The notes under the pieces: model-generated
Database searches by the model: none
What the model saw: only the letters and a program-made list of their open reading frames with translations
What the model was told of the DNA's origin: nothing
Translations under genes and position numbers: made by a program
Shown here: positions 29,007 to 57,130 of the stretch, piece by piece
Layout of the letters: each line of letters starts with the position of its first letter
Numbering within the stretch: the first letter of the stretch is position 1
From: Candidatus Micrarchaeota archaeon
GTDB taxonomy: Archaea; Micrarchaeota; Micrarchaeia; Micrarchaeales; CABMGC01
NCBI GenBank assembly: GCA_021848095.1
Contig: JAJZMZ010000004.1
Location: 5,111 to 69,110 of the forward strand
DNA length: 64,000 bases
Direction: 5' to 3'

Positions 29007-29846
29007 TCATCTACCAAAAATATATCCTAATTCGTAAGCTATACCTTTTAGTAATACTAAAATGAAACTATATATAATTAAAGATAGGCTATTAGATTTC
29101 AACGAATCCTTTCTGAATCTTGTTTTTGTTTTTATTAACTCTTTATATTCTGTGTTTTTCAATTCTCTTGCAGCAACTCCATATCTATAATTATGCTTAA
29201 AGAATTCTCGAAAATTCTTTGGTTCGTTATGCAATATTGCATTACTTAATATTCCTATCTTTTTAGATATTTTATACGCTTCATAATATACTATTGCATC
29301 TTCAAAAATCATTATATCATGCAATTTACCAATATTGATATTTTTAAATGCTTTAAGTATAATTTTTCTATCAAAAAAACGAGGTACTAAAACTCCATTA
29401 AGTGGATCTATCTGTGCTTCGTATAGTTTATGTACCAGTTTTCTATCTGCACTAGCTGCTTTTTCAAGAAAAGTAGATTTATTTATGCTGTCCTCTTCTA
29501 AAACTAACATATCATACTTTCTCATCAATTTCATTGATTTTTCAATTATTTTATTATCTTTTAATATCTGGTCAGAATCTACCATTAAGATATATTTCCC
29601 ATTTGAATTTTTAGCTCCAATATATCTAGCCCCAAGAACCCTCCATTTAGTCTGTATTACTTTACACCTAAAGTACCTAGCTATTTTTAACGTATTGTCC
29701 GAAGAAAAACCATCAACTACTATTATTTCAATATTTTTTTCACTTTGTCTTTTAATGCTTTCTAAACAAGCTTTCAAAGTTCTTTCAGAATTAAATGTGG
29801 GTATTACTACAGATATTAAGATATCTCCTTTATCCATTTTAATCAT
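29007..29846 (-). CDS. Glycosyltransferase family 2
   Basis: ISVVIPTFNSERTL...IEIIVVDGFSSDNT and MVDSDQIL. The start overlaps the stop of the upstream EF-Tu-like gene (ATGA). Confidence 0.85.
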   Translation of the reverse strand: MIKMDKGDILISVVIPTFNSERTLKACLESIKRQSEKNIEIIVVDGFSSDNTLKIARYFRCKVIQTKWRVLGARYIGAKNSNGKYILMVDSDQILKDNKIIEKSMKLMRKYDMLVLEEDSINKSTFLEKAASADRKLVHKLYEAQIDPLNGVLVPRFFDRKIILKAFKNINIGKLHDIMIFEDAIVYYEAYKISKKIGILSNAILHNEPKNFREFFKHNYRYGVAARELKNTEYKELIKTKTRFRKDSLKSNSLSLIIYSFILVLLKGIAYELGYIFGR

Positions 29847-30727
29847 TTTATTGCTCCAAAAATTTTAGGACTTTTTTCCTTTATTAATACTGCTACATTA
29901 TCCTTATTTATTTGTATTGGAACCCCTGTTTTTACTTTAAATTTATTACCATCAATTTTGCTTATTTTGCACGGTACCGTATCAAAACCTCTTATTAATG
30001 TGTACTGCATCTCTTCAGAAATATCCTTTTGCATAGGGCTTATTTCAATAACCACTTCTACTTCAGATATTGCTTTTATTTGTTTTTTAGCTAGTATCTC
30101 CCCCTTTTCTATATCCTTCTCTTCAACTCCTTTTACAGCAAGACCTACTCTAGCTCCCTGATCGGCAGTTTCCTTATCTTCATCCTGTACCTGTATTGAA
30201 CGTATCTGTACCTCCTTTCCTGATCTAGTATAAAGTTTATCATGTACCTTAACCGTACCGCTTCTTACTAAACCTAAAAGAACTAGTCCCACTCCCTTAA
30301 CTGGAAAAACCTTATCAATATCAATTAATAGCTCCTCAGTTGGCTTCTTTGCATCTGATATAACTGCTAGCTCATTAATTATCTGTTCTTTTTCAAGCAC
30401 TTTATACTTTAAATTTAGCTTATTTACTAATGAGGATACATCATTGTCATTTGTTAAGATAACTTCTTTATTCAATAGAGCCGCAGCTATTACTGATTCA
30501 CCAAAATTAGCATCAATGCTCTTTGTGCTTATTATTACAATATCTGATAATGTTAATATCTCTCCTAGTGCATAAAACTTTTCAGTAAGGTTTGTTGGAG
30601 TTAATATGGTCAATGAGGTATCATTTATTCTCCTATTGTAAATTGTTACTCCATTCTCACCAGTTTTTTTACCTAGCCACTCTGCAAGCTCTTTGTCATT
30701 AGTTATCGCTACAACTAAATACTTCAT
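29843..30727 (-). CDS. EF-Tu/SelB-family-like protein with a degenerate G domain (pseudo-GTPase) plus a domain-II beta-barrel
   Basis: Residues ~135-215 (IDKVFPVKGVGLVLLGLVRSGTVKVHDKL...VQIRSIQVQDEDKETADQGARVGLAVKGVEEKDIEKGEILA) fit the EF-Tu domain II consensus. The N-terminal half has a G-domain-like length but no GxxxxGK[ST] (closest is LGKKTG), no DxxG and no NKxD. Confidence 0.65.
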   Translation of the reverse strand: MKYLVVAITNDKELAEWLGKKTGENGVTIYNRRINDTSLTILTPTNLTEKFYALGEILTLSDIVIISTKSIDANFGESVIAAALLNKEVILTNDNDVSSLVNKLNLKYKVLEKEQIINELAVISDAKKPTEELLIDIDKVFPVKGVGLVLLGLVRSGTVKVHDKLYTRSGKEVQIRSIQVQDEDKETADQGARVGLAVKGVEEKDIEKGEILAKKQIKAISEVEVVIEISPMQKDISEEMQYTLIRGFDTVPCKISKIDGNKFKVKTGVPIQINKDNVAVLIKEKSPKIFGAIK

Positions 30728-30787
30728 AATTACACTGCATTATTATTTTACAATTAAATATTTAAGTTAATTCTTTATGTTATTTAA

Positions 30788-33082
30788 TTAACTTTCATTA
30801 CGGTCTATCTTAAAAATTTTCATATCCGTGTTCATGTAAGCCAATTTAAAAGTTATATTTCTATTATTTATTGCACATGATTGCACATTACACATAAACA
30901 TAGACTTTATAAGATTTGAGTCAAATAATGCTTTGTTCAGAACATAAACTTCTATTGGTGCTTGAGATATTGGGATATTTCTAACATATGTGTTGTTATA
31001 CAAAACTATCACTCCATATCCATTATTTGTATAATTAATTTCAGAAAAATTTCCGTTAGAATAATCATAAAATAACACATTACTCAATTGATACGTGCCA
31101 TTTTTATCTCCTATTGTTACAATACTTTTGTTTATAGGTGCCGTTTGATTTTTAATATATACATTTGCATAGAAACCTGTGGCTAAATTTGTGAAGTTGT
31201 AAATAGCTCCAGAAAATCCTGTTTCTTCATTTTCATGGTTCATTATATCAAAGTTTCCTGGACTTTTTTGTAACTCTATATATATTCCTGAAATGTAGTT
31301 TATCCAGTAATTTCTAACAAGTAAGTAATTAGGCGCACCCATTGTTTTATTAAAGAAAATACTATTATTTTGGGTATCATTTACTAACCACAAATCAAAA
31401 TTACTTATTTTTGTGGCGTTTTGTGAACCTACGCTATCAATAACGCTTGTTCTATTTCCCCATCCTTCTATAAGAGATCCTTCAGTCCAGAAAGTCAAAA
31501 ATATTGAATTGTTTGGTGTATTTTTAGAAATCCAATTCATTCCTGTTAATGTTTGATTAGTTATGCCATCTGATGGACTTGCTTTTACATATGCAAAACT
31601 CATTGCTATTATTATAATCAACAAGAAAATCAAGAAAATAAATGGCGTTATAATATAATTTCTTGAACTTTCGCTTGATTTTTGCCTATTTTTATTTGAT
31701 ATAGAAGAAATTATCCAATATAATCCATACGCTGAAAATATGGCTAATGGTATTGAGAATAAAGATGAAAATCTGCTCCCCGAAATAGTCAAATAGCTAG
31801 TTATTGCAAAGTACGATGCCAATACTAGTATCTGTGATGTTATGTTTTCTTTTATTTCAACTTCACTATCAAACCAACTTCCATCCTTATTTATTTTCAT
31901 TAATAAGAATGGTATAAAACCAAGTATAGAAATTAGCCAAAAAACAGTTCCATAGTTTTGGAATATCATTCCAAGTGTTATAAACCATGACATAGGTGTA
32001 AAAAACATAGTTATTCCAAAACTCACAATGGCAAAGTTATATGTTGGGGGCAATAACTCCTGAATGGATTTAAAAAGAGGGTTTGTTTGTGTAAATCCAT
32101 TATAAACAAAAATCCTATTTACAAGGCTTTGTAGAAATATTAATATAAAAATAGAACCTACTATTATTATTGTTGCTACAAAAAGTGCTCTTGCCTTATT
32201 ATTTTTAAAAATATTAAAATAGTTAATTAAATATAAAATTAAATAAAAGCTAATAGTTATTAAATAAATCAATATAAAACTACTGCCTAAAAGTGCTTGA
32301 TTACTGCTTTTTATAAATGAATATATTTGATATATACTAACTAACAAAAACCAAGTAAAAAGAGAAAATACAACATATAATGTATTTTTAAAAAGTTCAT
32401 CCTTTTTCACTATATAACTTATACCACTAATTACCAATATCATAATTATATAAATAAGAATTGCAAAACTTGCACCGTTCCACACTAATGAACATAAACT
32501 TAGAAAAATTCCTGACAATAAAGCATATATTATTTTTTTATATATTGATTTTTCTTCAAAAATCTTCAATACAAAAATCAAAGAAACTATCAAAAATATG
32601 CTAACAAATCCATCTCCTCTATAAACTAACGCCATAGTTTTAGATACATTACCTAAACTCACTGCAACAAAAAGCATTACTAATAATCCAAATAATTTGT
32701 TTTTACTTATAAATCTGGATAAATAATAAGCTCCTATTACATCTAAAATCCCAAATAATACTGGTATTACTCTATAAATATCATAATATGAGAAACCAAA
32801 AAATCTCAGAAAATAATATGGGATTATAGTTACCAAATACAAACCATACGGTTCAGTTATCTTAGTATGTATTGGTGATCCAGATAATCCTAGATAGTTT
32901 GGTATCTGAAAATTATTATTTATTGCAGCTTTAATAACCGCAAAATGGTAAAAACCATCAGGTTCAAAAAAACCATTATACTGTAATAATTGTATTCTTA
33001 AGTATACACCTATCAATAATATTATTATGGTTAATATTAAAAAAATGTATTTATTTTTTGAGTGCTGATCCAAATAATCCAC
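30788..33082 (-). CDS. GT-C fold membrane glycosyltransferase; the best fit is an AglB/STT3-like oligosaccharyltransferase with divergent catalytic motifs
   Basis: About 13 predicted TM helices precede a ~250-aa C-terminal soluble domain. The first external loop carries the acidic motif FFEPDGFYHF (compare D-x-D/DPxxYYH in STT3/AglB). After the last TM, FWTEGSLIEGWGNRTSVID sits where AglB/PglB have WWDYG...R/K-T-x-V-x-D. Confidence 0.6.
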   Translation of the reverse strand: MDYLDQHSKNKYIFLILTIIILLIGVYLRIQLLQYNGFFEPDGFYHFAVIKAAINNNFQIPNYLGLSGSPIHTKITEPYGLYLVTIIPYYFLRFFGFSYYDIYRVIPVLFGILDVIGAYYLSRFISKNKLFGLLVMLFVAVSLGNVSKTMALVYRGDGFVSIFLIVSLIFVLKIFEEKSIYKKIIYALLSGIFLSLCSLVWNGASFAILIYIIMILVISGISYIVKKDELFKNTLYVVFSLFTWFLLVSIYQIYSFIKSSNQALLGSSFILIYLITISFYLILYLINYFNIFKNNKARALFVATIIIVGSIFILIFLQSLVNRIFVYNGFTQTNPLFKSIQELLPPTYNFAIVSFGITMFFTPMSWFITLGMIFQNYGTVFWLISILGFIPFLLMKINKDGSWFDSEVEIKENITSQILVLASYFAITSYLTISGSRFSSLFSIPLAIFSAYGLYWIISSISNKNRQKSSESSRNYIITPFIFLIFLLIIIIAMSFAYVKASPSDGITNQTLTGMNWISKNTPNNSIFLTFWTEGSLIEGWGNRTSVIDSVGSQNATKISNFDLWLVNDTQNNSIFFNKTMGAPNYLLVRNYWINYISGIYIELQKSPGNFDIMNHENEETGFSGAIYNFTNLATGFYANVYIKNQTAPINKSIVTIGDKNGTYQLSNVLFYDYSNGNFSEINYTNNGYGVIVLYNNTYVRNIPISQAPIEVYVLNKALFDSNLIKSMFMCNVQSCAINNRNITFKLAYMNTDMKIFKIDRNES

Positions 33083-33713
33083 TATTTAAATAATATTTAT
33101 TGTATAATTTTTTCAATTTTTTATATTTTTTTTCAACGCTACTGCTAAAAATTGTATTACCCAACTCATTTGCATGATATAAATATGCATCCTCTCTAAA
33201 TCCATTATTGCTTTCATTAGAAAAAGCTAATGGTAAGAATCCAAATCTTAAACCTGATTCTTTCATAGTTTTATCTATAATCTCCTCATCCCATGTGTCT
33301 TCTTTTTTCCTTTGTTTCAAAACAAATTTTAAGTAATTATTAACATTTTTATTACATCTTAAAAAAACTACTCCTATATTGAACTTGTCTCCAGTTTCAT
33401 AATGTCTTTGAATTAATATATCCTTATCTTTTATAAGTTTAAACACTTCATTACAAAAAGGCCTTAAAAAAATAATATCCACATCAAAAAGTGCAATTAC
33501 TTCATTATTATTAATTTTACTTGCTTTTTCAATAACCTCTATTTTTTTCCAACCAGCTTCATACCACCCTTTTGTGCGTATGCCACCAGTCCCTTCAAAA
33601 TCAATTTCTATATTGGTTATTTTAGAACTCGGCTCAACTTTTTTCAACGAAGGCAAAAACACCTCGTTATACATATTATATACCTGTTTGGATATTACAG
33701 TATAAATCTTCAT
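33051..33713 (-). CDS. Putative nucleotide-sugar-dependent glycosyltransferase (GT-A-like, DxD = DVD)
   Basis: VIALFDVDIIFLRPF is a DxD motif in a Rossmann-like context. The gene is divergent from glf and its 3' end overlaps the AglB-like ORF by 32 nt. The family assignment is uncertain. Confidence 0.45.
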   Translation of the reverse strand: MKIYTVISKQVYNMYNEVFLPSLKKVEPSSKITNIEIDFEGTGGIRTKGWYEAGWKKIEVIEKASKINNNEVIALFDVDIIFLRPFCNEVFKLIKDKDILIQRHYETGDKFNIGVVFLRCNKNVNNYLKFVLKQRKKEDTWDEEIIDKTMKESGLRFGFLPLAFSNESNNGFREDAYLYHANELGNTIFSSSVEKKYKKLKKLYNKYYLNSGLFGSALKK

Positions 33714-33790
33714 CTGAACACTAATAGAATATATACATATATTTATTTGTAACTTATTAATTATTATTAATTAACAAATCCAAGTTTTTT

Positions 33791-34894
33791 ATGGAATATG
33801 ATTTTTTAATAGTTGGTTCAGGTCTTTCCGGTTCTACTCTTGCGGAGAGGCTTTCACATAAATATAAAAAAATACTACTTATAGATAAGAGAAGTCATTT
33901 AGGAGGTAATGTTTATGATGAATATGATAAGAACAATGTCCTAATACATAAATATGGGCCGCATATTTTTCATACTAATTCTAAAGAAGTTTTTGATTAT
34001 CTTTCTAATTTTACTGAATGGATTAAATATGAACATAAAGTTGTTTCTTTTGTAGACAATAAATTTGTTCCAATTCCAGTAAATAGGAACACATTAAATC
34101 TTATATTTAATGAACATCTTAAAACTGACGAAGAAACAAGCATATATTTAGATAAACTGAAGAAAAATATAAAAATTATTAAATCAGCAAAGGATGTTGT
34201 TTTATCTAAAATTGGCAAAGAATTATATAAAAAACTCTTTGAAGGATATACAAAAAAACAATGGGGTATTAATCCAGAAAAACTATCTCCTGAAATAACT
34301 AAAAGAATACCGATTAGAATTAATTGTGACGACAGGTATTTTAGTGATTTATATCAATACATGCCAAAAGATGGTTATACTGCAATGATTAAAAAAATGT
34401 TATCCAATAAAAAAATAAAAATTCTTTTAAATACTGATTTCAGAAATCTCGACAAAAAAATAACTTATAAAAATTTAATTTATACTGGACCTATAGACTA
34501 CTTTTTTAATTATAAATATGGTAAACTTAATTACAGATCAATATATTTTGAATTTGAGTCATATAATAAAAATCATTATCAAAATTATCCTGTCATAAAT
34601 TATCCTGATGAAAAAATAAACTATACAAGAATAACTGAATTTAAATATTTAACCGGCCAGAAAATTAACAAAACAACAATAGTCAAAGAATATCCTCAAT
34701 CAAAAGGTGATGAGTATTATCCTATTTTAACTGCAGAAGATAAGAAAATTTACGAAAAATATAAAAAAGAAGCATTAAAATTAAAAAATACTTATTTTGT
34801 GGGTAGACTTGCTGAGTTTAAATATTATAATATGGATCAAGCAGTAGCAGCGGCTTTATCTCTGAGTAAAAAAATATTAGCGATGGAAGTTTAA
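33791..34894 (+). CDS. glf: UDP-galactopyranose mutase
   Basis: FAD motif DFLIVGSGLSGSTLAERL, then IDKRSHLGGNVYDE, YGPHIFHTN and GRLAEFKYYNMDQAV at the C-terminus. Length is about 367 aa. Confidence 0.9.
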   Translation: MEYDFLIVGSGLSGSTLAERLSHKYKKILLIDKRSHLGGNVYDEYDKNNVLIHKYGPHIFHTNSKEVFDYLSNFTEWIKYEHKVVSFVDNKFVPIPVNRNTLNLIFNEHLKTDEETSIYLDKLKKNIKIIKSAKDVVLSKIGKELYKKLFEGYTKKQWGINPEKLSPEITKRIPIRINCDDRYFSDLYQYMPKDGYTAMIKKMLSNKKIKILLNTDFRNLDKKITYKNLIYTGPIDYFFNYKYGKLNYRSIYFEFESYNKNHYQNYPVINYPDEKINYTRITEFKYLTGQKINKTTIVKEYPQSKGDEYYPILTAEDKKIYEKYKKEALKLKNTYFVGRLAEFKYYNMDQAVAAALSLSKKILAMEV

Positions 34895-35941
34895 ATGACA
34901 AATAAATTATCAATACAAATATCTACATATAATAATATTAAATTGGCAAAATCACTTATTGATTTATTAAATAAAATTGCAGACGAGTTTTTAATTATTG
35001 ATCAAAGCAATCAATACAATAAAAATTTACTTAAGAAGCTTTCAAAAGTTAATAAAAAAATCAAAATAATTGATTTTATTCCATTAGGATATCCAGAACT
35101 TCTACGTTCATTCGCTATACAAAATTGTAAAAATAATTGGGTTTTACTCGTAGACGTAGGAGAAAAATTAAGCAAAGAATTTATTAAAAAAATACCCTAC
35201 TATATAAATAAAAATAATGTAGATGGTTTTATCTGCAGAAGAATAGATAAATTATCTAAAGGTAGTTATGAAATTTGGCAACCACGTATTTTCAAAAAAG
35301 ATAAAGTTGTTAATTTGGGATTTTTACACGATTTAATAGGCATAAACGGAAAAACAGAAACAATAATTGATAAAAATATATTTATGATAGAAAATATAGA
35401 CTATGAAACAAATCCTGAGAAATTGTTACGTTATTTCAAAATAGAGTCATATACATCAAGATTATTGTATAAAGATTTACTAAAAATAAGTCAAAAAAGA
35501 TCAAAATTACTATTCAAATCTATAAAAATTTATTTAAAAATATTTAAAAAAGATGAAAAAACTGAACTTTCTTATTTTGAATATAAAATAATGAATATAC
35601 TATATCTGTTATATTTGTATATTTCTCAAAAAGAGAAAATAAGTTTTAAAGGTATAAAATTCAAAAATTGGTATAACTCTAAAAAATTTAAGTTTTTTTC
35701 AACTACAAATATTTCTGAAAGAAAACTTCAAATTGAAATAAAAAATGAAATTGATAGATATGGTGGTTTGATCAAATACTTATCTTTAGATAATGCTTTA
35801 GTTATAACAACATTATACAATAAACTGAAAGATTCAAAACTCAAGCCAGAAGATAATCTTATAAATCTGTTAATATTAAGAAATAGATTAGGGTTTAATT
35901 ATTTTAAGTTGATGAAGGAAGATTTCAATGATATTAAATAA
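34895..35941 (+). CDS. Divergent GT2-like glycosyltransferase (paralogue of 23109-24032)
   Basis: LSIQISTYNN...ADEFLIIDQSN and LLVDVGEKL. The start abuts the glf stop directly. Confidence 0.55.
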   Translation: MTNKLSIQISTYNNIKLAKSLIDLLNKIADEFLIIDQSNQYNKNLLKKLSKVNKKIKIIDFIPLGYPELLRSFAIQNCKNNWVLLVDVGEKLSKEFIKKIPYYINKNNVDGFICRRIDKLSKGSYEIWQPRIFKKDKVVNLGFLHDLIGINGKTETIIDKNIFMIENIDYETNPEKLLRYFKIESYTSRLLYKDLLKISQKRSKLLFKSIKIYLKIFKKDEKTELSYFEYKIMNILYLLYLYISQKEKISFKGIKFKNWYNSKKFKFFSTTNISERKLQIEIKNEIDRYGGLIKYLSLDNALVITTLYNKLKDSKLKPEDNLINLLILRNRLGFNYFKLMKEDFNDIK

Positions 35942-36878
35942 TAATTTATTAGTCAGTGTAGTAATACCTACTTTTAATAGATCTACCAATTTACAGAACT
36001 GCATAGATTCAGTTTTAAAGAGTAATTATAAAAATATAGAAATTATAATTACTGACGATAACTCTAATGATGGTACAAAAGGAAAAATTTTAAAGAAATA
36101 TAAAAATAAAAAAATTAATTATTTTTATTCAAAAAATAAGAAATTTCTTTCATATAACTTAAACAAGGCAATTAAAAAATCAAAAGGAGAGTTAATTCTT
36201 AAGTTGGATGATGATAATGTTCTGGATAAGAATGCAATTACAGAGATGGTTTCTACATTATTAATTGATAAAAGAATTGGCGTTGTTGGTCCAGTTGCTT
36301 TGTACTTAAAAAATCCAAATATTATTTGTCATGCAGGTGTAACTAAAAGAAGTAAAATAATGCGTAGGGCTATTTACTCATATGCAAACAAGGATCTTAA
36401 GACATTACCAACTACTTTGTCTGTAGAAGATTTCACAAATGTTTTTATGTTTAAAAGGGAAGCGATAATTAAGTCCGGCTTATTTGATTTGGAGATACCT
36501 TATATGGGCGAAGATAGCGAGTTTCAAGCAAGAGTTGTTAGAAATGGCTACAAAATAAAGCTTTGTAATAATGCATTTGTTTATCACAACATACCTTTCA
36601 AAACTGAGAAATATTTTATAAGGTTTAATAACGTCAGGCTTTATCATACTATGAGAAGTAAGATTTTATATGAAATGAGATATGCAAAACACCATCAAAA
36701 ATTAACATTTATTATTTCAATACCTATTTACTGGAGTTATTATGCTTATAGAATATTCAAAACTAAAGATAAGTTTAATAATAAATTAACTCTTTTAAAA
36801 AATGTTATTAACGGAACCTTTAATGGATTTACCGATTCTATCAAGAAAAAAACTTCAATAGAGTACCTTGATTATTGA
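35928..36878 (+). CDS. Glycosyltransferase family 2 (paralogue of 28031-29002)
   Basis: VSVVIPTFNR...IEIIITDDNSNDGT and KLDDDNVLD. It overlaps the upstream gene by 14 nt and the convergent pilin gene by 7 nt. Confidence 0.85.
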   Translation: MILNNNLLVSVVIPTFNRSTNLQNCIDSVLKSNYKNIEIIITDDNSNDGTKGKILKKYKNKKINYFYSKNKKFLSYNLNKAIKKSKGELILKLDDDNVLDKNAITEMVSTLLIDKRIGVVGPVALYLKNPNIICHAGVTKRSKIMRRAIYSYANKDLKTLPTTLSVEDFTNVFMFKREAIIKSGLFDLEIPYMGEDSEFQARVVRNGYKIKLCNNAFVYHNIPFKTEKYFIRFNNVRLYHTMRSKILYEMRYAKHHQKLTFIISIPIYWSYYAYRIFKTKDKFNNKLTLLKNVINGTFNGFTDSIKKKTSIEYLDY

Positions 36879-37426
36879 GTTGCAACTACTGTAAATCTAC
36901 CTAACTCTTGGATTGCATTAGTTGTAGTACTTGTGGAATACATTACATAAACTACTCCTGATAACTTCGAACCTATTTTAATCCCAGAAGGCAACAAAGG
37001 AGAGTTCGGATCTATAACTGTTGTTACATACTGTTGACTTCCACTACCTAAGCTACTTAAAAAAGCCCAATTTCCAACTATTTGCCCCCAATAATAAACC
37101 GAGTTAGATGTATATCCAGAAGGCTGTGAAATTACTTGGCCATCTGGTACTGCTATGATATAAACATTACTCCATTGTTGACCTACTTGTCCGATATCTA
37201 CGCCTATATACGGGTGTCCGGTATCTGGTGATCCCGAATAACTAGTACCTAATGTAATATTTGTGCATAAAAATCCAGAGTTAGCAATACATGCGTTACT
37301 TCCTCCTCCGAGATTGTTAAAAACCCCTAAAATAAATAAAGCTACTAAGGTTATTGCAATAATTAGGATTGACCAGCCATAAGTCATCAAGTACTCCATA
37401 GCGCTTTGAGCTTTGTATGATTTCAA
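36872..37426 (-). CDS. Small type IV pilin-like protein (class III signal peptide)
   Basis: MKSYKAQSAMEYLMTYGWSILIIAITLVALFILGVF followed by CIANSGFLC. At 184 aa it is sized like a major or minor pilin. Confidence 0.85.
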   Translation of the reverse strand: MKSYKAQSAMEYLMTYGWSILIIAITLVALFILGVFNNLGGGSNACIANSGFLCTNITLGTSYSGSPDTGHPYIGVDIGQVGQQWSNVYIIAVPDGQVISQPSGYTSNSVYYWGQIVGNWAFLSSLGSGSQQYVTTVIDPNSPLLPSGIKIGSKLSGVVYVMYSTSTTTNAIQELGRFTVVATQ

Positions 37427-37450
37427 AACAGATCCCTGCTATACCTTTAA

Positions 37451-38347
37451 TTATGGTGCTATATAACCATTTTGCCAGTCTGTTGTATAAGTTCCTCCAT
37501 TCTGTTGTCCGTTATAGTTATTTCCTGAGTAATCATTAGCATTACCATTAAGTGGCCACCAGCCAACAAGATTTTGTAGTTTAATAGGTACTCCACCTAT
37601 TCCTTCATTATAAAGTGCTTTAATTTGATTAGCTGAAAGGCTTGTATTGTAAATTTGTATATTTGCTATATCTCCTCCCATATATGCAGATCCATCCCAC
37701 GTTCCAATTCCTGAACCAAGAACTAGAATGCTGTTTGTTGTTAAAATTCCTGTTGTTGTTCTACTGCACATAGTTGAACCGTTTACCCAAACTATCTGCT
37801 CCTTTGTTATTGAGTTCCAGCTTGCTCCTAATTGATACCATGTTCCAGCTGTAGGGCCTTGTGTACATCCTATGTCATCTGCCCAGAAGTTAAGGTACCA
37901 TTTTCCAGATCTAGAAAAGATTCCGAATCCTTGATCAAGAGCACCTGGGGGTTGTCCGCTCCAAGCATATCCTAAATCTCCATTACCTGAAGGAGGACTT
38001 GCAAGATTAGTTCCTGGAGGCCAATAAATCCAACCAAGTATTGTAAATGAGTTTCCTTGAAAAAATTCCTTATTTACATTAATGTAATTTCCAACTCCAA
38101 CAAATGTACTTACTGTTTGTGGTAATTCATTGTTACAGGTACCTTCTAAATTTATACTTGAAATACTCTCTGGGCCTCCTGGTCTAAAAACTTGGCAACT
38201 TCCAGGAGGTAATTTAGGTCCTAATGACGTAGTGTTAAAAATTCCTAACTCGAAGAGTGCTACTAAAACAATGGCTATAATTAGAATTGACCATCCGTAA
38301 GTCATCAAGTACTCCATTGCACTTTGGAGCTTTAGTAGCTTTTTCAT
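37451..38347 (-). CDS. Type IV pilin-like protein fused to a LamG/concanavalin-A-like lectin domain
   Basis: MKKLLKLQSAMEYLMTYGWSILIIAIVLVALFELGIF at the N-terminus. The C-terminal GDIANIQIYNTSLSANQIKALYNEG is the typical LamG_3 ending. Confidence 0.85.
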   Translation of the reverse strand: MKKLLKLQSAMEYLMTYGWSILIIAIVLVALFELGIFNTTSLGPKLPPGSCQVFRPGGPESISSINLEGTCNNELPQTVSTFVGVGNYINVNKEFFQGNSFTILGWIYWPPGTNLASPPSGNGDLGYAWSGQPPGALDQGFGIFSRSGKWYLNFWADDIGCTQGPTAGTWYQLGASWNSITKEQIVWVNGSTMCSRTTTGILTTNSILVLGSGIGTWDGSAYMGGDIANIQIYNTSLSANQIKALYNEGIGGVPIKLQNLVGWWPLNGNANDYSGNNYNGQQNGGTYTTDWQNGYIAP

Positions 38348-38362
38348 AAGCTCATACTATTT

Positions 38363-40585
38363 TTACTGTTTATAATGATTGTTTTTATGATTATTTGTAA
38401 AACCTAAAAATGAAACGAACTTATTTTCTGTATTGACGAAGTTGTTCTTGTTTAGGTTCCCATGCTTAATCACTTCGTAACTAACTGAATTTGTACATGC
38501 TGAAGAGTCATTATAATTAAATGAGTCACTGCTGTTCCATGTATTTATTATGTGATCACTGCAACTATGTTGTTCTTGATTATCATTATCACAGTTTATA
38601 CTACTGTAGTGTGGATTTTTACATGATGCTGGTGTTGTTAAGGTAACTGCAGCTAATGATGAGTTAGAACTCAAGTTTGTTGTAAGATCTGTTACATGTA
38701 CTTTGAAGTAATATACTCCCATTGCACTTTGTGGATATGTGTCAAATACATACTTTGCAGAGTTTGAGTCTGCAATTGCTACGAAACTATTTGTATATGG
38801 TGTTTTTACATACCATGTGTATGTGTAGTTGTTTACTGAAGATGTTGATACTGTATCTGCATAAAGTGCAAGCGACTCTTTTTTATGTATTGTAAAGTTT
38901 TCTGGCGTTATGCTTACATTTAAGTACTGTGGTTTGTATGGTACTTTTGATACATTAATAACTACTGAAGACGTTGCTGTTTTTCCTTTTGAATCAGTTA
39001 CCATTTCAGTAATGTTATATGAACCTGTTCCCTCAAATGTTGCGCTGTTGTTTATTAAAGTTACATTGTTTGTTGGTGTTATTTTATACGAGTATGTGTA
39101 AGGTGCTGTTCCATATGTCGTTACGTTTGACAATAAAATAGTTGTATTTGTATATATTGTTGTATTTAATACAATTAACTTTATTAATGGTAATTGATTT
39201 ACTATCACAGTTGCGTTGTTAGATAATGTTGAGTCATTTGCTGAGTCTTTTACGTTTAAGTTTATTGTATAATTTCCTACCTTTGGTGCAACATTAAGTG
39301 TCTTTGTTGTTGCATTGTTTACTCCATTAATTATCCATTGATATGAGTAATTTCCAAAACCGCCTGATACATTTGAGTATAGCGTTGCATTTTGTCCAAG
39401 GTCCAATACAGTTAGATTTGGTTTAACATTGACAACTAATGCGGGTGCTTCTACATTTACAGTTGCTGTTGTGTAGTTGCTCTGTCCAAATGAATCAGTT
39501 GCAGTTTCTTTTATTGTGTATGTTCCTGGGTATTTAAAAGTAAAGTTGTTTCCTTTTTGTGTAACATTTGAGTTATACATATATGTATAATTGTAAGGCG
39601 CTTCTCCTCCTGTCGTAATATTTTGCAGTGAAGCGGTTTGTGTTATTAATATAGTTTGTGTGCTTGGTGTTAATTGTATTTTTACTGCTGGGTTTACATT
39701 TATGGTTGAGTTGTTTGTTTTAAACGAATCATTTTGATTGTCATGAACAACTGCGTATACATTATAATTTCCAGGATTATCTCCAATAAATGTAAATGTA
39801 CTTTGATTTGCTACCACTTTAACATTATTTACAAACCATGCATAAGTATAATTTCCCGTACCTCCTGTTGTATTTGCTTTTAATACCTCTGATTGACCTA
39901 AATCTATCTTTTTATACGTTGGATATATACTTGAGTTAAGTGGTGTGAATGTTGGCAAAACAGTTATATTTGCTTGAGCGGTTGCATTTGCATTATTTGT
40001 ATCGCTGACTTCTTCAGTTATTTTATAACTGCCTGCTTTTCCAAAGAAGAATGAGTTTCCACTTCGATTAACATTACTTGAAATATTTAAATATTTATAA
40101 GAAGTATAATACTCTGAACCTGTGTACTGTACAGTGCCGTTTTGTGTATTGTTTGTAAACTTTATTGAGTTTCCTGCATAAATTGTGTCTGTTTGTGGAA
40201 TTAAATTTAATACAAGTCTTGTATCTACTCCTTCATACGTTGAACCAGATCCTTTATTTCCTGCTGTGTCGGTAACATTTACATTTATTACATCAGGGTT
40301 TGATTCATCACTTACATTTCCATGAAATACTGCAACACAGCTACTATTTCCAAAGTTGCCACTTCTAGAAGTTACAAATAAGTCATAGTATGACCATGCA
40401 CAACTATAGCTTCCATTTCCTCCTGTTATGTTAGCATAAACAGTTGTATTATAACCTGCATCTATTACTGGATATTGTGCTGTTACACCTACTGAAAGTG
40501 CAGCTCCATAAGAAGCTCCTATAAACAAAACTGATACTAATAATGATAGTATCCAAAACCTTTTCGAATTCATAATGTTACCCAA
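38363..40585 (-). CDS. Secreted multi-PKD/Ig-like repeat protein with a Cys/His/Asn-rich C-terminal region
   Basis: Signal peptide FWILSLLVSVLFIGASYGA. At least six ~85-aa repeats carry PKD-type endings (VTDTAGNKGSGS, VSDTNNANATAQANITV, VHDNQNDSFKTNNSTINV, ATDSFGQSNYTTATVNV, VKDSANDSTLSNNATVIV, VTDSKGKTATSSVVINV). An alternative start lies at 40573. Confidence 0.85.
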   Translation of the reverse strand: MGNIMNSKRFWILSLLVSVLFIGASYGAALSVGVTAQYPVIDAGYNTTVYANITGGNGSYSCAWSYYDLFVTSRSGNFGNSSCVAVFHGNVSDESNPDVINVNVTDTAGNKGSGSTYEGVDTRLVLNLIPQTDTIYAGNSIKFTNNTQNGTVQYTGSEYYTSYKYLNISSNVNRSGNSFFFGKAGSYKITEEVSDTNNANATAQANITVLPTFTPLNSSIYPTYKKIDLGQSEVLKANTTGGTGNYTYAWFVNNVKVVANQSTFTFIGDNPGNYNVYAVVHDNQNDSFKTNNSTINVNPAVKIQLTPSTQTILITQTASLQNITTGGEAPYNYTYMYNSNVTQKGNNFTFKYPGTYTIKETATDSFGQSNYTTATVNVEAPALVVNVKPNLTVLDLGQNATLYSNVSGGFGNYSYQWIINGVNNATTKTLNVAPKVGNYTINLNVKDSANDSTLSNNATVIVNQLPLIKLIVLNTTIYTNTTILLSNVTTYGTAPYTYSYKITPTNNVTLINNSATFEGTGSYNITEMVTDSKGKTATSSVVINVSKVPYKPQYLNVSITPENFTIHKKESLALYADTVSTSSVNNYTYTWYVKTPYTNSFVAIADSNSAKYVFDTYPQSAMGVYYFKVHVTDLTTNLSSNSSLAAVTLTTPASCKNPHYSSINCDNDNQEQHSCSDHIINTWNSSDSFNYNDSSACTNSVSYEVIKHGNLNKNNFVNTENKFVSFLGFTNNHKNNHYKQ

Positions 40586-40648: not shown

Positions 40649-41179
40649 TTAAAACTCTAGCAATGAAACTGTTTTTATTGGGCTTAATATCTCCTTTCCG
40701 TTTAGTTGTTTTAGTTCTATCGCGAAGCACACACAAGCTACCACTCCATTTAACTTATTGACTAGGTTGCAAGCTGCTTTGGCGGTTCCTCCAGTAGCTA
40801 AAAGATCATCTATTATAACTACCTTATCATTACTCTCTAGCGCGTCTATATGCATTTCAAGGGTAGCAGAGCCGTACTCTAGTTTATACTCTTCTTGTAC
40901 TGTTTTGTAAGGGAGCTTGCCTTTCTTTCTAGCTGGGATGAAGCCTTTATTCATTTTATTTGCTACCGCTGAACCTAGTATAAATCCTCTAGACTCAATA
41001 CCAACTATGTACTTAAAATCAATATCTTTTAAAAGCTCAACAAGCCTATTAATTAATAATGAAAAAAGCTCAGGGTTTTTAAGCAAAGGAGTAATATCCT
41101 TGAAGATTATTCCTGGTTTTGGATAATCGTTTACATTTCTTATACTATTAATTAATCTTTCATTGTTTTTTCCTTCCAT
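40649..41179 (-). CDS. apt: Adenine phosphoribosyltransferase
   Basis: YPKPGIIFKDITPLL, GIESRGFILG and the PRPP motif VVIIDDLLATGGTAKA. I chose the start at MEGKNNE (41179). Confidence 0.9.
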   Translation of the reverse strand: MEGKNNERLINSIRNVNDYPKPGIIFKDITPLLKNPELFSLLINRLVELLKDIDFKYIVGIESRGFILGSAVANKMNKGFIPARKKGKLPYKTVQEEYKLEYGSATLEMHIDALESNDKVVIIDDLLATGGTAKAACNLVNKLNGVVACVCFAIELKQLNGKEILSPIKTVSLLEF

Positions 41180-41302
41180 ATTAATCCTTTTTATCCATTT
41201 ATTTAAGTTTATCAAAAGTGATACCGCTATGTTAATATATTTATATATTTACTTATTATAAAACAGTAGGTTATAACTTAATTTATTTACTGAACTGATT
41301 AA

Positions 41303-42001
41303 ATGAAGATAAAAAATATACCAAAAACAGTTGCTATAATTCCTGATGGAAATAGACGCTGGGCAAAATCTCACACCCTATCTATAATGAATGGATATGA
41401 TTTAGGCGTTAAAAAATTCATAGAGTTTAGTGAGTGGTGTGTATCTTACGGAATAAACAACATAGCCGTGTGGGCATTTTCAACTGAAAACTTTTCAAGA
41501 GATTCAAAAGAGGTAAAAACATTATTTGCAATATACAAAAAGGTAGCAAATGATAAAAAAATACTTTCAAGATTACATAAAAATAAAACATCTTTAAAAA
41601 TAGTTGGAAATAAATCATTACTTCCAAAAGATCTTCTAGTTTCATTAAAAAAAGTAGAAAAGGAAACATCAATTTATAAGGACAGAGTAATAAATATGCT
41701 TATTGCATATGGTGGAAAAGATGACATCTTACATGCAGTAAAAAGTATAGCTTCAAAAGCAAAAACAGCAGCAAGTATAAATGAAAAATTAGTATACAAA
41801 TATTTATTGTCAAACACAGTTCCAGATATTGATTTAATTATAAGAACCTCGGGAGAAAAAAGACTTTCAGGTTTTATGCCTTGGCAAACTTCCTATTCTG
41901 AACTTTATTTTTCAGATAAGCTTTGGCCTGATTTCACTAAAAATGATTTACATTCTGCACTTAAGGAATACAACAAAAGACAAAGAAGATTTGGCAAGTA
42001 A
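41303..42001 (+). CDS. uppS: cis-Prenyltransferase (undecaprenyl/dolichyl-type diphosphate synthase)
   Basis: VAIIPDGNRRWAK, WAFSTENFSR and IRTSGEKRLSGFMPWQTSYSELYF. Confidence 0.9.
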   Translation: MKIKNIPKTVAIIPDGNRRWAKSHTLSIMNGYDLGVKKFIEFSEWCVSYGINNIAVWAFSTENFSRDSKEVKTLFAIYKKVANDKKILSRLHKNKTSLKIVGNKSLLPKDLLVSLKKVEKETSIYKDRVINMLIAYGGKDDILHAVKSIASKAKTAASINEKLVYKYLLSNTVPDIDLIIRTSGEKRLSGFMPWQTSYSELYFSDKLWPDFTKNDLHSALKEYNKRQRRFGK

Positions 42002-42012
42002 AGTGTTTTTAA

Positions 42013-43851
42013 ATGCCTGATGAAAAAAGAGACGTTACTCGTTTTACAAAGTACTTTGGATTAACAATTCCTGGAACTGGAACATTAATTTTAATACTGA
42101 TACTATTTGGAGTAATCTCTGGAATTATAAGTGAGTTAATATTAAATCCTACTTCTAACTTACTTTACATATTAACATCAGGTGCAGGTTTAGGGATAAC
42201 AATAATTGCATTTCCAGGAATATTGACTGGATTATTATTTAAAGTAATGAAAAGGTCATTAAAACTTAAACATGCATTAGTAGCTGTTCTTGTTATAACA
42301 TTGACATATGCCGCATTTTTCATAATAAGCGCATTTACATACGAACTTACCAAAAATTATGGTTTAGCATTGATACCAATATTACTTAGCGATGCCGGAA
42401 TCTACGGCTATTGGTTCATATTAAATAAGGTAGTTCTTAATCAAAGGAGAACGATTATATTTACTGCAGCAATACAATCAGTTTTAAACGCATTAATTTT
42501 CATTCCAATAAGCGGTATTTTGTTTACAATTAATGTATCTCCAATATATGTACTATTAAAACTAATTGCAGGAATGCTTGCATTCATGATTTGTGGTTAT
42601 TTAATACTCTTCATTATGGATAGACCATCTAAAAAGTTAGCTAACTTTAGTGGAGTAGAGATAATGAGTCTTATGGTAGGTCAATGGCTGTATGGTTCTA
42701 AAAATAATACAAAGCCACTAGAAAAAATGGGAACTACTAGAGATATTCCTGTATCTATATTAGCGTTAAAATCAAAAAATAAATACAAAGCAATATTTGT
42801 AAAACCAAATATTCATTATGGTCCAATACAGGGTTTAGGTGGAAGCGTAACTACTGAATTATTAGGAAATAGAATAGTAAAAAGTTATGGCGCTACTCCA
42901 TTCATACTACACGGAGCTGTAAATATAGAGGACAATCCTGTTAACTCTTCAGACATAAATATCATTTGGAACTCTTTGAATAAAGAGTTAGCATCAAAAA
43001 ACAATAAGTCTTTCGAGAGTTCATCATTTTCATTATCAAAAGTAACTGTAAATAAATGTACTGCGTTGGGAATAAAATTAAACAACTCCTTATTACTCAC
43101 ACTTACAAAAGCACCATACGTTACTGAAGACATAGATAGTGACATAGGTTTAAGTTTTGAGTCTTTATCATCTAAATATAACTTAAACTGTATTTTAATT
43201 GATGCACATAATTCTCGTTTTGAATCGGCAGAAGCTGAAGAACTTAAAGGTATTTACAAAGGAAGCAGGTATGTTTCAAAATACAAAACTGCAATACTTT
43301 CTGTAATAAATTCATTAAAATCTTCAAAGAATGAAAAGCTACTTTTTGGTTCTTCTCATATAAAATTAAAAACATATCTTAAAACAAACGACATAGGTCC
43401 TGGTTATATGTCTGTTGGTGTATTCAAATCAAAAAAACAAAATTTCTGTATGGTTTACTTTGATTCAAATAATATAGCTCCAAAGTTCAGATCAAACTTA
43501 ATAGAGTATATTAAAAATAGATATAAATTAAATGCTGAGTTGTACTCTACAGATACTCATGCAGTAAATACTCTTGCATTATCTGCAAGTAATGTTCTAG
43601 GTAAAACTACAAAAGAAAAAGATATACTTCCATATTTAGATAAAACAATTGAAGAAGCATTAAACTCATTAGAAGAAGTTAAACAATACTACTCAAAAAT
43701 AACTATAAACGACTTTAAAGTTTGGGGAAAAGGTTCAGAAGAAACAATAATGCGAGCAAGTAGACAGATAATAAAAAGAGGTAAAAAATCAGTACCTTTT
43801 ATAGTTGTTGGCTTCTTTATAATTGCAGCATGGGCAATATACCTTGCATGA
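42013..43851 (+). CDS. Polytopic membrane protein with a large C-terminal soluble domain (possibly the archaeal DUF2070-type family)
   Basis: About 6 N-terminal TM helices, a ~380-aa soluble region, and a terminal TM (FIVVGFFIIAAWAIYLA). The family assignment is from memory of the architecture only. Confidence 0.6.
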   Translation: MPDEKRDVTRFTKYFGLTIPGTGTLILILILFGVISGIISELILNPTSNLLYILTSGAGLGITIIAFPGILTGLLFKVMKRSLKLKHALVAVLVITLTYAAFFIISAFTYELTKNYGLALIPILLSDAGIYGYWFILNKVVLNQRRTIIFTAAIQSVLNALIFIPISGILFTINVSPIYVLLKLIAGMLAFMICGYLILFIMDRPSKKLANFSGVEIMSLMVGQWLYGSKNNTKPLEKMGTTRDIPVSILALKSKNKYKAIFVKPNIHYGPIQGLGGSVTTELLGNRIVKSYGATPFILHGAVNIEDNPVNSSDINIIWNSLNKELASKNNKSFESSSFSLSKVTVNKCTALGIKLNNSLLLTLTKAPYVTEDIDSDIGLSFESLSSKYNLNCILIDAHNSRFESAEAEELKGIYKGSRYVSKYKTAILSVINSLKSSKNEKLLFGSSHIKLKTYLKTNDIGPGYMSVGVFKSKKQNFCMVYFDSNNIAPKFRSNLIEYIKNRYKLNAELYSTDTHAVNTLALSASNVLGKTTKEKDILPYLDKTIEEALNSLEEVKQYYSKITINDFKVWGKGSEETIMRASRQIIKRGKKSVPFIVVGFFIIAAWAIYLA

Positions 43852-57120: not shown

Positions 57121-57130
57121 GGTTTTAAAG

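Follow-up and report, generated by a model that had tools for sequence, protein, structure and literature searches.

A divergent Micrarchaeota ortholog of the archaeal SelB-like protein aSelBL, with a broken GTPase domain and a local glycosylation island around it

The window, a stretch of 64,000 nucleotides from a Candidatus Micrarchaeota archaeon (contig JAJZMZ010000004.1), carries on its minus strand an ORF of 294 codons plus a TGA stop (29843..30727), in agreement with the 294-aa protein given for these coordinates in an earlier note on this DNA. An identical copy of the protein is found on nine public contigs. The ORF is called aSelBL here, an assignment discussed below, and the locus comprises the following features.

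29007..29846, minus strand: GT2 glycosyltransferase gene, downstream of aSelBL (Pfam PF00535, E=5.6e-25)
29843..29846, minus strand: ATGA stop/start overlap of aSelBL and GT2 (from the sequence)
29846..30082, minus strand: predicted domain III beta-barrel of aSelBL, residues 216-294 (model, profile alignment, Foldseek)
30083..30328, minus strand: domain II beta-barrel of aSelBL, residues 134-215, with pocket residues D138, K139, L151 and R193 (Pfam GTP_EFTU_D2, conservation)
30350..30727, minus strand: reduced, degenerate G-like alpha/beta domain of aSelBL, residues 1-126 (model secondary structure, MM1309 alignment, motif counts)
30759..30765, minus strand: TATA-like box TTAAATA, 31 nt before the aSelBL ATG
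30788..33082, minus strand: divergent AglB/STT3-like gene of 764 aa, upstream of aSelBL (Pfam STT3, motif scan)
33051..40573, strand unspecified: rest of the upstream insert (compared synteny, gene labels)
40649..43851, strand unspecified: backbone genes for a PRTase, a cis-prenyltransferase (UPPS family) and a DUF2070 protein (HMM labels from Pfam-labelled seeds)

On the downstream side, the GT2 gene opens a co-directional run of GT2, methyltransferase, epimerase and GT4 genes that extends to about 20544. The stop codon of aSelBL and the GT2 start share the tetranucleotide ATGA, as the earlier note had it, and the same 4-nt overlap is present in an 81%-identical species; a second possible GT2 ATG lies three codons past it. 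From this overlap it had been argued that the ORF is translationally coupled within a glycosyltransferase operon. The overlap stands, but nothing singles it out as a junction: among the 46 pairs of adjacent same-strand genes in the window, 10 overlap or abut and 20 are separated by no more than 10 nt, so that it represents a common junction type in a compact genome.

Upstream, the AglB-like gene is indeed the next gene and passes the Pfam STT3 model, albeit narrowly (27.0 versus 24.5 bits), with FWTEG where WWDYG is expected in a motif scan. It does not adjoin aSelBL immediately, as had been claimed; a 60-nt spacer that contains the TATA-like box separates the two genes. A corresponding box (TTATAAA.CTTCTTT) aligns 25-31 nt before the ATG in nine species, where the upstream gene is AglB, MAT (AdoMet synthetase) or divergent. 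We regard it as a putative promoter of aSelBL itself, judging by sequence conservation in DNA that is AT-rich. Scanning 28.8-33.3 kb with a bacterial sigma-70/intrinsic-terminator model, which is uninformative for an archaeon, returned 38 sites versus 33 ± 5 expected and no terminators. One contig (L005), in which a 184-aa gene and not AglB lies upstream, was considered as a strain without the upstream island and rejected, since blastn showed that the locus is the same and that 1.27 kb within AglB are deleted in it. The rest of the upstream insert encodes a nucleotide-sugar transferase, a UDP-galactopyranose mutase, two GT2-like proteins, a pilin-like ORF, a LamG protein and a PKD-repeat protein. 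This insert of ~10 kb occupies the slot that DS, CBS-HTH and MAT hold in related species. The backbone genes beyond it are arranged and oriented as in relatives, in which MAT and then aSelBL follow them (DUF2070< UPPS< PRT> DS> CBS-HTH< MAT> aSelBL). The ancestral upstream neighbour of aSelBL is MAT.

The archaeal SelB-like family aSelBL was described as a group with a disrupted G domain by Atkinson, Hauryliuk and Tenson (2011; PMC3037878), who included a member from Micrarchaeum (ARMAN-2). A crystallised member is MM1309 or 'EF-Pyl' of Methanosarcina mazei (PDB 2ELF, 3WNB-D; Yanagisawa et al., 2015; PMC4329189), which binds Cys-tRNACys and shields it against hydrolysis (PMC4329189). When a profile of the family of the 294-aa protein, which has relatives in 498 species-representative genomes, was compared with solved structures, MM1309 (3wnb) was the best match (E=4e-56), followed by aSelB (5e-30), aEF1A (2e-21) and EF-Tu (5e-14); the single sequence as query also retrieved MM1309 as the best solved relative (E=3e-21). 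The profile alignments are nearly full length and reach residue 367 of 370 in MM1309 and 400 of 405 in EF-Tu. The AlphaFold2 model (pLDDT 96.4, pTM 0.92) depicts a closed three-domain EF-Tu/SelB-like protein, and Foldseek superposed all three domains on 3wnb with the best TM-score (TMq 0.85), which upholds the EF-Tu/SelB fold. Similarity to EF-Tu structures was higher for the GTP form (TMq 0.74-0.79) than for the GDP form (~0.50). Both the profile search and the TM-scores thus place the protein closer to aSelBL than to aSelB, EF1A/EF-Tu or aIF2-gamma. With NCBIfam selB (TIGR00475) it reaches 77.3 bits, below the cut-off of 242.25, over model positions 161-319 only, so it is no SelB proper, and it scores far beneath the cut-offs of the EF-Tu and EF-1alpha models. 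On sequence grounds, the ORF is best assigned as the Micrarchaeota ortholog of aSelBL, a SelB/EF-Tu-like protein with a broken GTPase domain. Within aSelBL, an archaeal SelB-like paralog of the selenocysteine elongation factor, it falls in the 'divergent' branch.

Domain II is the best conserved part of the protein. Its identification with the EF-Tu/SelB/aIF2-gamma domain II at residues ~135-215, proposed from the sequence alone, is borne out by Pfam GTP_EFTU_D2 (residues 147-213, E=1.6e-10), and the score of 41.7 bits exceeds the gathering cut-off of 30.3. Of the 36 alignment columns with at least 90% conservation, 30 fall in domain II. The accompanying statement that the protein has no domain III proved wrong. 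A second all-beta domain spans residues 219-293 with pLDDT above 90 in the AlphaFold2 model, and both structural and profile alignments run through domain III of MM1309, SelB and EF-Tu, the profile alignments up to the C-termini of MM1309 and EF-Tu. Pfam GTP_EFTU_D3 gave no match to the single sequence; domain III was recognized by structure prediction combined with profile alignment. The protein consists of domains I-III alone, as the model finishes with domain III at residue 293 of 294 and contains no C-terminal SECIS-recognition extension.

Domain I is far more degenerate. Consistent with the claim that the N-terminal part lacks GxxxxGK[ST], DxxG and NKxD, a motif scan of the first 135 aa found neither the first two motifs nor [NT]KxD, and proper alignment did not recover any of them. 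In the family alignment none of the 55 sequences has a P-loop at the beta1-alpha1 position. Strict P-loop matches in six Thermoplasmata members all lie at residue 81 inside a helix and were rejected as P-loops. PF00009 (GTP_EFTU) did not match the single sequence even at E up to 10. Nor are the N-terminal ~130 aa of G-domain size, as had been stated; they form a reduced alpha/beta domain of 126 aa. Where translational GTPases have G1, G3 and G4, the positional equivalents are non-canonical. According to the model, the P-loop is replaced by a connector of three residues, T9-N10-D11, which joins beta1 to alpha1 and contains no glycine. T43-P44-T45...L47 stands in place of DxxGH, and in the mapping onto the GTP contacts of MM1309 the Mg-ligand Asp46 corresponds to T43 and Tyr50, at the His site, to L47. 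A G19-K-K-(G)-(S/T) element is conserved, whose K20-K21-(G)-(S/T) part corresponds to the G2 remnant 'KGT'. These features agree with the 2011 description of aSelBL, which listed a G1 deletion, the 'KGT' remnant of G2, a G3 without His, and conserved Asp191 and Arg247 (PMC3037878): the protein has the deletion, the remnant and a G3 without the catalytic His. Having lost its P-loop, Mg-binding Asp and catalytic His, domain I would neither bind nor hydrolyze GTP in the canonical manner. The earlier view of a protein derived from a translation factor and deprived of its canonical GTPase site is thereby supported, and was already published for aSelBL (PMC3037878).

The loss of all canonical G motifs could be taken as the mark of a decaying, functionless relic of a translation factor, a reading to which we give practically no credence. 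It is already refuted by selection and conservation data: dN/dS is 0.088-0.097, indicative of strong purifying selection, for the three closest orthologs, to which the estimate is limited because dS is saturated past ~45% protein divergence; a length of ~300 aa has been kept over hundreds of genomes, 16 residues are invariant, and the fold is predicted with a pLDDT of 96. Alternatively, domain I might still bind GTP or some other nucleotide at a non-canonical site, so that the protein would be a nucleotide-dependent switch and act as a specialised elongation or delivery factor on the ribosome. MM1309 does bind GTP, at 0.43 µM, despite an imperfect P-loop (Arg for Lys) and the lack of a catalytic His (PMC4329189), the 2011 study allowed for a 'hitherto unknown mechanism', and aSelBL conserves the patches through which domain II contacts 16S rRNA (PMC3037878). 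Moreover, E77 is conserved in domain I, and D96, an Asp in 31 of the 55 sequences, occupies the position of the guanine-binding Asp103 of MM1309 in the manner of a G4 Asp, which may leave room for some non-canonical ligand binding. However, the entire phosphate-binding loop is deleted down to the glycine-free connector, Thr replaces the Mg-ligand Asp, and just six columns of domain I reach 90% conservation. The model is locked in the closed state without nucleotide, and in MM1309, likewise, the conformation is the same in the GTP, GDP and apo forms (PMC4329189). We therefore consider a nucleotide-dependent switch improbable.

The residues that would contact an aminoacyl group have been retained. 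D138 and R193 are invariant in all 55 sequences, whereas position 139 is occupied by K in 28 and by H in 21. D138, R193 and K139 are the equivalents of Asp191, Arg247 and His192 of aSelB, so that the pocket has the Asp and Arg typical of aSelBL; His192 is lost in the Micrarchaeum/Sulfolobales branch of the family (PMC3037878). Domain II, together with the aSelBL-specific GKKG(S/T) element, would thus preserve the aminoacyl/CCA-end pocket residues of SelB and MM1309, and the three domains would be held in a closed arrangement like that of the GTP form. Because the pocket residues are conserved, aminoacyl-tRNA binding independent of a nucleotide appears to be the likeliest activity. The protein would then protect or deliver such a tRNA. 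Its ligand could be Cys-tRNACys, as in MM1309, given the positive charge of the pocket (R193 plus K/H139). The extrapolation of tRNA binding and of its specificity starts from a homolog that is 25% identical and that, unlike the 294-aa protein, binds GTP. A role in tRNA or RNA metabolism apart from decoding, such as tRNA maturation, repair or quality control, with the EF-Tu fold as a module that binds RNA ends, seems quite unlikely. RtcB, the peptidyl-tRNA hydrolase PTH2 and class-I aminoacyl-tRNA synthetases recur among the neighbours of aSelBL, RNase P and RNase Z were reported next to it at the ARMAN-4/-5 loci, and the option was raised in the 2011 paper (PMC3037878). Each such neighbour is found in few loci only, however, and the conserved pocket residues, which in SelB accommodate the aminoacyl moiety, speak for a charged tRNA.

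The proximity of glycosylation genes had suggested that the protein was recruited to a glycan-assembly operon, and the conservation of linkage with GT2 and AglB genes across archaea had been proposed as the check. Gene neighbourhoods were surveyed at 80 species-level loci. Glycosylation genes adjoin aSelBL in 7/8 loci at ≥50% identity and in 9/15 loci at 42-49%, and large glycosylation clusters flank it only in species of the former group. Below 42% identity, 10 of the 58 loci have a glycosylation gene within two positions and 48 have none. STT3 adjacency was limited to the window, locus L021 and, at position -2, locus L095, and the content of the island differs in each species examined. At 52 of 73 loci aSelBL and the gene downstream of it converge, and in most Micrarchaeota this convergent gene is PLD-like. 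Other recurrent neighbours include, besides the PLD-like protein, a peroxiredoxin, a C39-like peptidase, class-I aaRS, RtcB and PTH2; the most common co-directional partner (a 227-aa protein) and the 243/244-aa neighbours had no NCBIfam or Pfam family. No glycosylation link to aSelBL was seen at the Thermoplasmata loci or in the genomic contexts surveyed in 2011 (PMC3037878). Conserved co-location with AglB and GT genes over lineages, the hallmark of an agl cluster, was thus not found, and the linkage is essentially not conserved, with the exception of a weak excess of single GT genes. This excess is nominal and was measured against genes at positions 3-8 or 5-6 away. In distant Micrarchaeota, HMM labels assign 10/208 genes within two genes of aSelBL to GTs versus 6/433 (Fisher p=0.014, a test that ignores shared ancestry and is not taken as evidence of function). 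A Pfam census likewise counted 18 GTs among 240 near genes, versus fewer than two each of GT4-type (group 1) and GT2 among 140 controls. The excess is patchy, weak and phylogenetically confounded.

These data bear on a functional recruitment of aSelBL to glycan assembly, be it as a scaffold or regulator of GT2 and AglB, as a coupler of ribosome and oligosaccharyltransferase, or as a donor of aminoacyl groups from tRNA to a glycan or lipid. Recruitment could account for the GT2 overlap kept in two species, for the adjacency of glycosylation genes in the closer relatives, for the nominal GT excess, and for at least four distinct operon-like arrangements with GT genes (GT4>aSelBL, aSelBL>GT2 by overlap, aSelBL>GT2 at 21 nt, and GT2>79aa>aSelBL). 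We nevertheless find it unlikely. No GT family, position or orientation is conserved, and the signal reduces to a few arrangements of shared ancestry. Most distant loci lack glycosylation genes nearby, the downstream gene is mostly convergent, MAT is the ancestral neighbour, and aSelBL has a conserved promoter-like box of its own. Closely spaced genes are usual in this compact genome, and the strongest constraint rests on those residues of the tRNA/aminoacyl pocket that SelB also has. Recruitment as a property of the protein thus remains unsupported. The absence of a described glycosylation role, which the earlier note had pointed out, agrees with our literature search, which found no link between aSelBL or Micrarchaeota elongation factors and glycosylation. 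That Micrarchaeota aSelBL has a moonlighting or primary role in cell-surface glycan assembly is very unlikely; if true, it would explain why GT genes recur beside aSelBL in several operon-like arrangements. In one version of such a role, aSelBL would pass the aminoacyl group of a charged tRNA on to a glycan or lipid-linked intermediate, like bacterial aminoacyl-tRNA-dependent transferases of the Fem/MprF type; in another, it would hold ribosomes at the AglB machinery during translation.

The surrounding glycosylation genes are best interpreted as an island that accreted around a backbone gene, which is the local history of a few close relatives, not a family trait. aSelBL would be a gene of the chromosomal backbone with its own TATA-type promoter, and a fast-evolving surface and glycosylation island would have grown on both sides of it in the lineage of the window, so that aSelBL would now head a transcription unit that runs into GT2 genes. 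Taken together, a divergent aSelBL ortholog that has lost the canonical GTP site, binds aminoacyl-tRNA and is a backbone gene within a local glycosylation island is the reading we consider probable. Overall, the locus represents a known protein family in an incidental genomic context. With respect to the pseudo-GTPase nature of aSelBL, which has been in the literature since 2011 and includes the Micrarchaeum member (PMC3037878), it adds little. aSelBL is a widespread archaeal protein, and the Micrarchaeota form is minimal, with 294 aa and a fully excised P-loop, and therefore lends itself to a clean test of aminoacyl-tRNA binding without a nucleotide. Testable leads to the function of aSelBL come from the patchy GT excess and from the recurrent PLD-like, peroxiredoxin, aaRS, RtcB and PTH2 neighbours.

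Among the known systems, aIF2-gamma/eIF2-gamma belongs to the same SelB-related midfamily and has the three-domain core, according to the literature, and aIF2-gamma matches the 294-aa protein less well than SelB or aSelBL. It is a working GTPase with a zinc knuckle and alpha and beta subunit partners, none of which are indicated here. EF-Tu/aEF1A share the domain II and III barrels and the closed architecture of the GTP form. At 11-15% identity, however, the 294-aa protein differs from them in a G domain cut to 126 aa and devoid of nucleotide-binding motifs. SelB, aSelB and eEFSec have the same domain I-III fold (Foldseek E ~1e-22; profile E=5e-30) and a positively charged aminoacyl pocket with an Asp plus an Arg, but the protein has neither intact G1-G4 motifs nor a domain IV or SECIS-binding extension. 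Unlike for SelB, no tRNA-Sec or selenium genes lie near the ORF, and no tRNA genes were detected when the window was scanned for tRNA-Sec, tRNA-Cys or any tRNA linkage. The differences from MM1309 concern domain I, which is ~45 residues shorter and lacks the P-loop and the Mg-binding Asp that enable MM1309 to bind GTP, and the overall identity of 25%; the glycosylation-island context sets the protein apart from the aSelBL family, for which none has been reported. Of the known systems, aSelBL with MM1309 is the closest. It provides the best match in sequence and structure and shares the three closed domains without a SECIS-binding extension, the GKKG(S/T) element, a G3 without the catalytic His and the equivalents of Asp191 and Arg247, and the loss of His192 is common to the 294-aa protein and the Micrarchaeum/Sulfolobales branch of the family.

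The ORF reported at 29843..30727 on the minus strand (294 aa) is present as described, and an identical protein occurs in NCBI assembly GCA_021844045.1. Its nearest homologs stem from Micrarchaeota bins. The product is a member of the aSelBL family and not a new kind of protein. This family was described by Atkinson, Hauryliuk and Tenson (2011; PMC3037878) as an archaeal SelB paralog without the C-terminal domain, whose G domain is "disrupted to varying degrees". Its "divergent" clade, comprising Thermoplasmatales, Sulfolobales, Thaumarchaeota, and Candidatus Micrarchaeum acidiphilum ARMAN-2, has a G1 deletion, a G2 remnant "KGT", and a G3 motif without the catalytic His. The aSelB pocket residues Asp191 and Arg247 are universally conserved in aSelBL, and loss of His192 is specific to the branch of Sulfolobales and Micrarchaeum (PMC3037878). 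The window protein shares all of these features: the G2 remnant, G3 without His, the pocket residues, and the loss of His192. Across an alignment of 55 homologs (26-81% identity to the window protein), the element K20-K21-(G)-(S/T) is conserved and D138 and R193 never vary; at position 139, Lys in the window protein, 28 sequences have Lys and 21 have His. The earlier interpretation as a "pseudo-GTPase" was right, but had been published in 2011 as aSelBL (PMC3037878). In a 2015 review of translational GTPases, aSelBL still appears as "a factor with unknown function", and nothing newer was found in the literature searched.

The proposed similarity to domain II is significant and well beyond chance (Pfam GTP_EFTU_D2 on residues 147-213, E=1.6e-10; score 41.7 bits, gathering threshold 30.3). 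The NCBIfam selB, EF-1alpha, and EF-Tu models give partial, sub-threshold matches over residues 117-278, well beyond domain II. An AlphaFold2 model (mean pLDDT 96.4, pTM 0.92, no residue below 70) contains three domains:

Residues 1-126: domain I, alpha/beta
Residues 134-213: domain II, beta-barrel
Residues 219-293: domain III, a second all-beta domain

In Foldseek searches against the PDB, the whole chain superposes on SelB, EF-Tu/EF1A, and MM1309, the crystallised aSelBL of Methanosarcina mazei (E 1e-18 to 1e-23). The top TM-score is 0.85 to MM1309 (3wnb, also called "EF-Pyl"; rmsd 3.6 A, 25% identity); against EF-Tu it is 0.74-0.79 for GTP-form and about 0.50 for GDP-form structures. The family profile matches MM1309 with E=4e-56 (profile positions 11-295 to chain residues 34-367 of 370), and its match to EF-Tu reaches residue 400 of 405. 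Model, superposition, and profile matches to the C-termini therefore place domain III in the protein, which ends with this domain and carries no SECIS-binding extension. The earlier note, mostly right otherwise, erred in calling domain III absent; it also ascribed "G-domain size" to the N-terminal part, which is a shrunken domain of 126 residues.

A motif scan of residues 1-135 found no GxxxxGK[ST], DxxG, or [NT]KxD, and proper alignment reveals no intact motifs either, so that the suspected G-motif loss holds. The reported GTP contacts of MM1309 were mapped through alignments (native residue numbers equal the chain index minus 20). Its P-loop, Gly8-Thr15, corresponds to just three residues, T9-N10-D11, which connect strand 2-8 to helix 12-18. 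T43 takes the place of the Mg ligand Asp46, and L47 that of Tyr50 at the site of the catalytic His; the guanine-binding T100-R-S-D103 aligns with T92-N-D-N-D96, where only the last Asp is moderately conserved (31/55 sequences). A P-loop pattern does match six sequences of a Thermoplasmata clade (P0077, P0085, P0090, P0105, P0114, and P0119), but at residue 81, within a helix and not at the P-loop position. This perfect Walker-A-like string, GAELFGKT (residues 81-88), is conserved within that clade, lies in domain I off the canonical beta1-alpha1 site, and is probably coincidental.

In the window, a divergent AglB/STT3 gene is followed by aSelBL and then by a series of genes for GT2, methyltransferase, epimerase, and GT4 proteins. 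DUF2070, the cis-prenyltransferase family gene (UPPS), and PRTase keep the order found in relatives, and the slot of deoxyhypusine synthase, CBS-HTH, and AdoMet synthetase (MAT) is filled by ~10 kb of surface-protein and glycosylation genes:

30788-33082, minus strand: AglB/STT3-like gene (Pfam STT3 27.0 vs 24.5 bits, over threshold by 2.5 bits only)
36872-40573, minus strand: three putative surface proteins, between the backbone PRTase and the glycosylation genes, namely
an ORF of 184 aa whose N-terminus resembles archaeal type IV pilins (MKSYKAQSAMEYLMTYGWSILII…),
a 298-aa LamG/pentraxin-like protein, and
a protein of 736 aa that has weak PKD repeats

The surface proteins are possible substrates of the island's enzymes. 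At residues 531-535 of the AglB/STT3-like protein, FWTEG stands in for the expected WWDYG, and regex searches of it found no WWDYG, DxD, or DK motif. The metagenome contig L005 (ERZ27237444 k141_573462) encodes an identical aSelBL; its AglB-like gene lacks 1.27 kb internally (relative to window 31406-32675), so that a C-terminal ORF of 184 aa remains. The deletion is either an artefact of assembly or the mark of a strain whose AglB is broken. Elsewhere in the window, 56300-62300 (+) holds 11 tightly packed plus-strand genes whose GC and AT skews are markedly positive (AT skew as high as 0.34), which sets them apart from the remainder of the window.

The stop codon of aSelBL overlaps the ATG of the following GT2 gene, as had been noted (…ATAAAATGATTAAAATGG…). 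A second ATG lies three codons downstream, and the true GT2 start could thus also be 6 nt past the aSelBL stop. Such an overlap is unremarkable, because 10 of the 46 same-strand junctions in the window overlap or abut. Co-transcription with the downstream GT2 genes is likely, since neither a spacer nor a terminator-like site was found between them. A TATA-like box (TTATAAA.CTTCTTT), 25-31 nt 5' of the start codon, is kept in nine species whichever gene lies upstream (AglB, MAT, or a divergent gene), which suggests that aSelBL has its own promoter.

Gene contexts were compared for 12 Pfam-annotated, progressively distant homologs and for 80 species-level loci from GTDB genomes; in the latter we called the genes ourselves and labelled them with HMMs whose seeds were the Pfam-annotated genes. 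At identities of at least 50%, glycosylation genes occur within two positions in 7/8 loci, but the gene content differs in every species:

Window and L021: AglB…GT2
L009: methyltransferase and GT2s
L011: GT4, epimerase, UDP-glucose dehydrogenase
L013 and L027: GT9, DUF2079, GT4

In L007 (13579-14391), from a species at 81% identity, the cluster is broken up by two unannotated genes and a gene of the AbiEii toxin family (PF08843), consistent with a hot spot of gene turnover. The clade at roughly 42% identity or more has the backbone DUF2070< UPPS< PRTase> deoxyhypusine synthase> CBS-HTH< AdoMet synthetase> aSelBL, and one subclade has a GT4 inserted immediately upstream of aSelBL. Two loci with this typical Micrarchaeota MAT>GT4>aSelBL synteny, L029 (DATJMH010000012.1) and L037 (JAKBPE010000009.1), were deposited as "Candidatus Saccharimonadales bacterium" and "bacterium" and are probably mis-binned or mislabelled.

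Of the 58 loci below 42% identity, only 10 carry a glycosylation gene within two genes of aSelBL. What recurs beside aSelBL in this group is a convergent gene for a PLD-like protein (in 19 loci), along with genes for an unannotated protein of 227 aa, peroxiredoxin, C39-like and M1 peptidases, IleRS, and RtcB. The single-HKD PLD-like protein (~190 aa; Pfam PLDc_2, weak DpdK/DrmC-like NCBIfam) is the commonest aSelBL neighbour in Micrarchaeota. Its gene is usually convergent, often overlaps the aSelBL 3' end by 4-6 nt, and lies at +1 in L047, L062, L064, L066, L071, L074, L075, L079, L083, L084, and others, and at -1 in L016; in the more distant L020, a PLDc_2 domain protein is encoded upstream. 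The most consistent operon-like partner is the soluble ~227-aa protein, which matches no Pfam or NCBIfam family; in 11 Micrarchaeota species (L049:7311-7994 (+) and 10 other loci) its gene lies 2-8 nt upstream of aSelBL and in the same direction. In Thermoplasmata the neighbours are ribosomal-protein operons, acetyltransferases, or PKD proteins. Across loci, the downstream gene is co-directional in only 21/73. Nor did the 2011 survey find a context that was conserved; the neighbours it reported (aaRS, RNase, hemH, and EF1A/S10) were scattered (PMC3037878).

A functional link of aSelBL to glycosylation appears quite improbable, even though glycosyltransferase (GT) genes are nominally enriched near it in distant Micrarchaeota too. 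HMM labels identify 10 GT genes among 208 genes at positions 1-2 versus 6 among 433 at positions 3-8 (Fisher p=0.014), and in an unbiased Pfam census of species below 50% identity, 240 genes at positions 1-2 include 9 GT4-type and 9 GT2 genes, two families that each number fewer than 2 among the 140 controls (positions 5-6). However, these loci do not count as independent cases: a single shared MAT>GT4>aSelBL arrangement accounts for the GT4 signal, the GT2 cases form about four arrangement groups, and genes for class-I aaRS are in comparable excess (9 vs 2). Taken together, the variable island genes, the conserved backbone, the distant contexts, the gene's own TATA-like box, and the commonness of overlaps point to aSelBL as a backbone gene beside a glycosylation island that turns over rapidly and that, in this lineage, has engulfed it. 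The suggested recruitment to glycan assembly finds no support beyond this local, lineage-specific arrangement, and the window aSelBL is a member of a known family in an incidental genomic context.

The gene is clearly functional, given a dN/dS of 0.088-0.097 against orthologs at 82-72% identity and relatives in 498 species-representative genomes. Of the 36 columns conserved at 90% or more, domain II holds 30 and domain I the other 6, which leaves domain III with none. The constrained positions include the GKKG(S/T) element, R193, and the stretch D138-x-x-F141-P-V-K-G145-x-G147…L151. In SelB, EF-Tu, and MM1309 this stretch and R193 line the pocket for the aminoacyl-CCA end, and Gly25-Thr26-Ser27 of MM1309, the counterpart of GKKG(S/T), forms part of its aminoacyl pocket. 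E77 is the sole invariant residue of domain I. His162 of domain II (…VKVHD…) is a clade-specific residue, invariant in all 55 divergent aSelBL sequences and replaced by Gly or Lys in MM1309, SelB, and EF-Tu. Fold, selection, conservation pattern, and motif loss are shown, and tRNA binding is inferred from them: the window protein most likely is a constitutively "closed", nucleotide-independent aminoacyl-tRNA binding protein, possibly specific for Cys given its Arg/Lys-lined pocket, and it may or may not act on the ribosome. The precedent of MM1309 and the predicted closed form make nucleotide-independent binding the best explanation. MM1309 protects Cys-tRNACys from deacylation, and its conformation is unchanged between the GTP, GDP, and apo forms (Yanagisawa et al., 2015; PMC4329189); the window protein is predicted to adopt the same closed arrangement, but without any nucleotide site.
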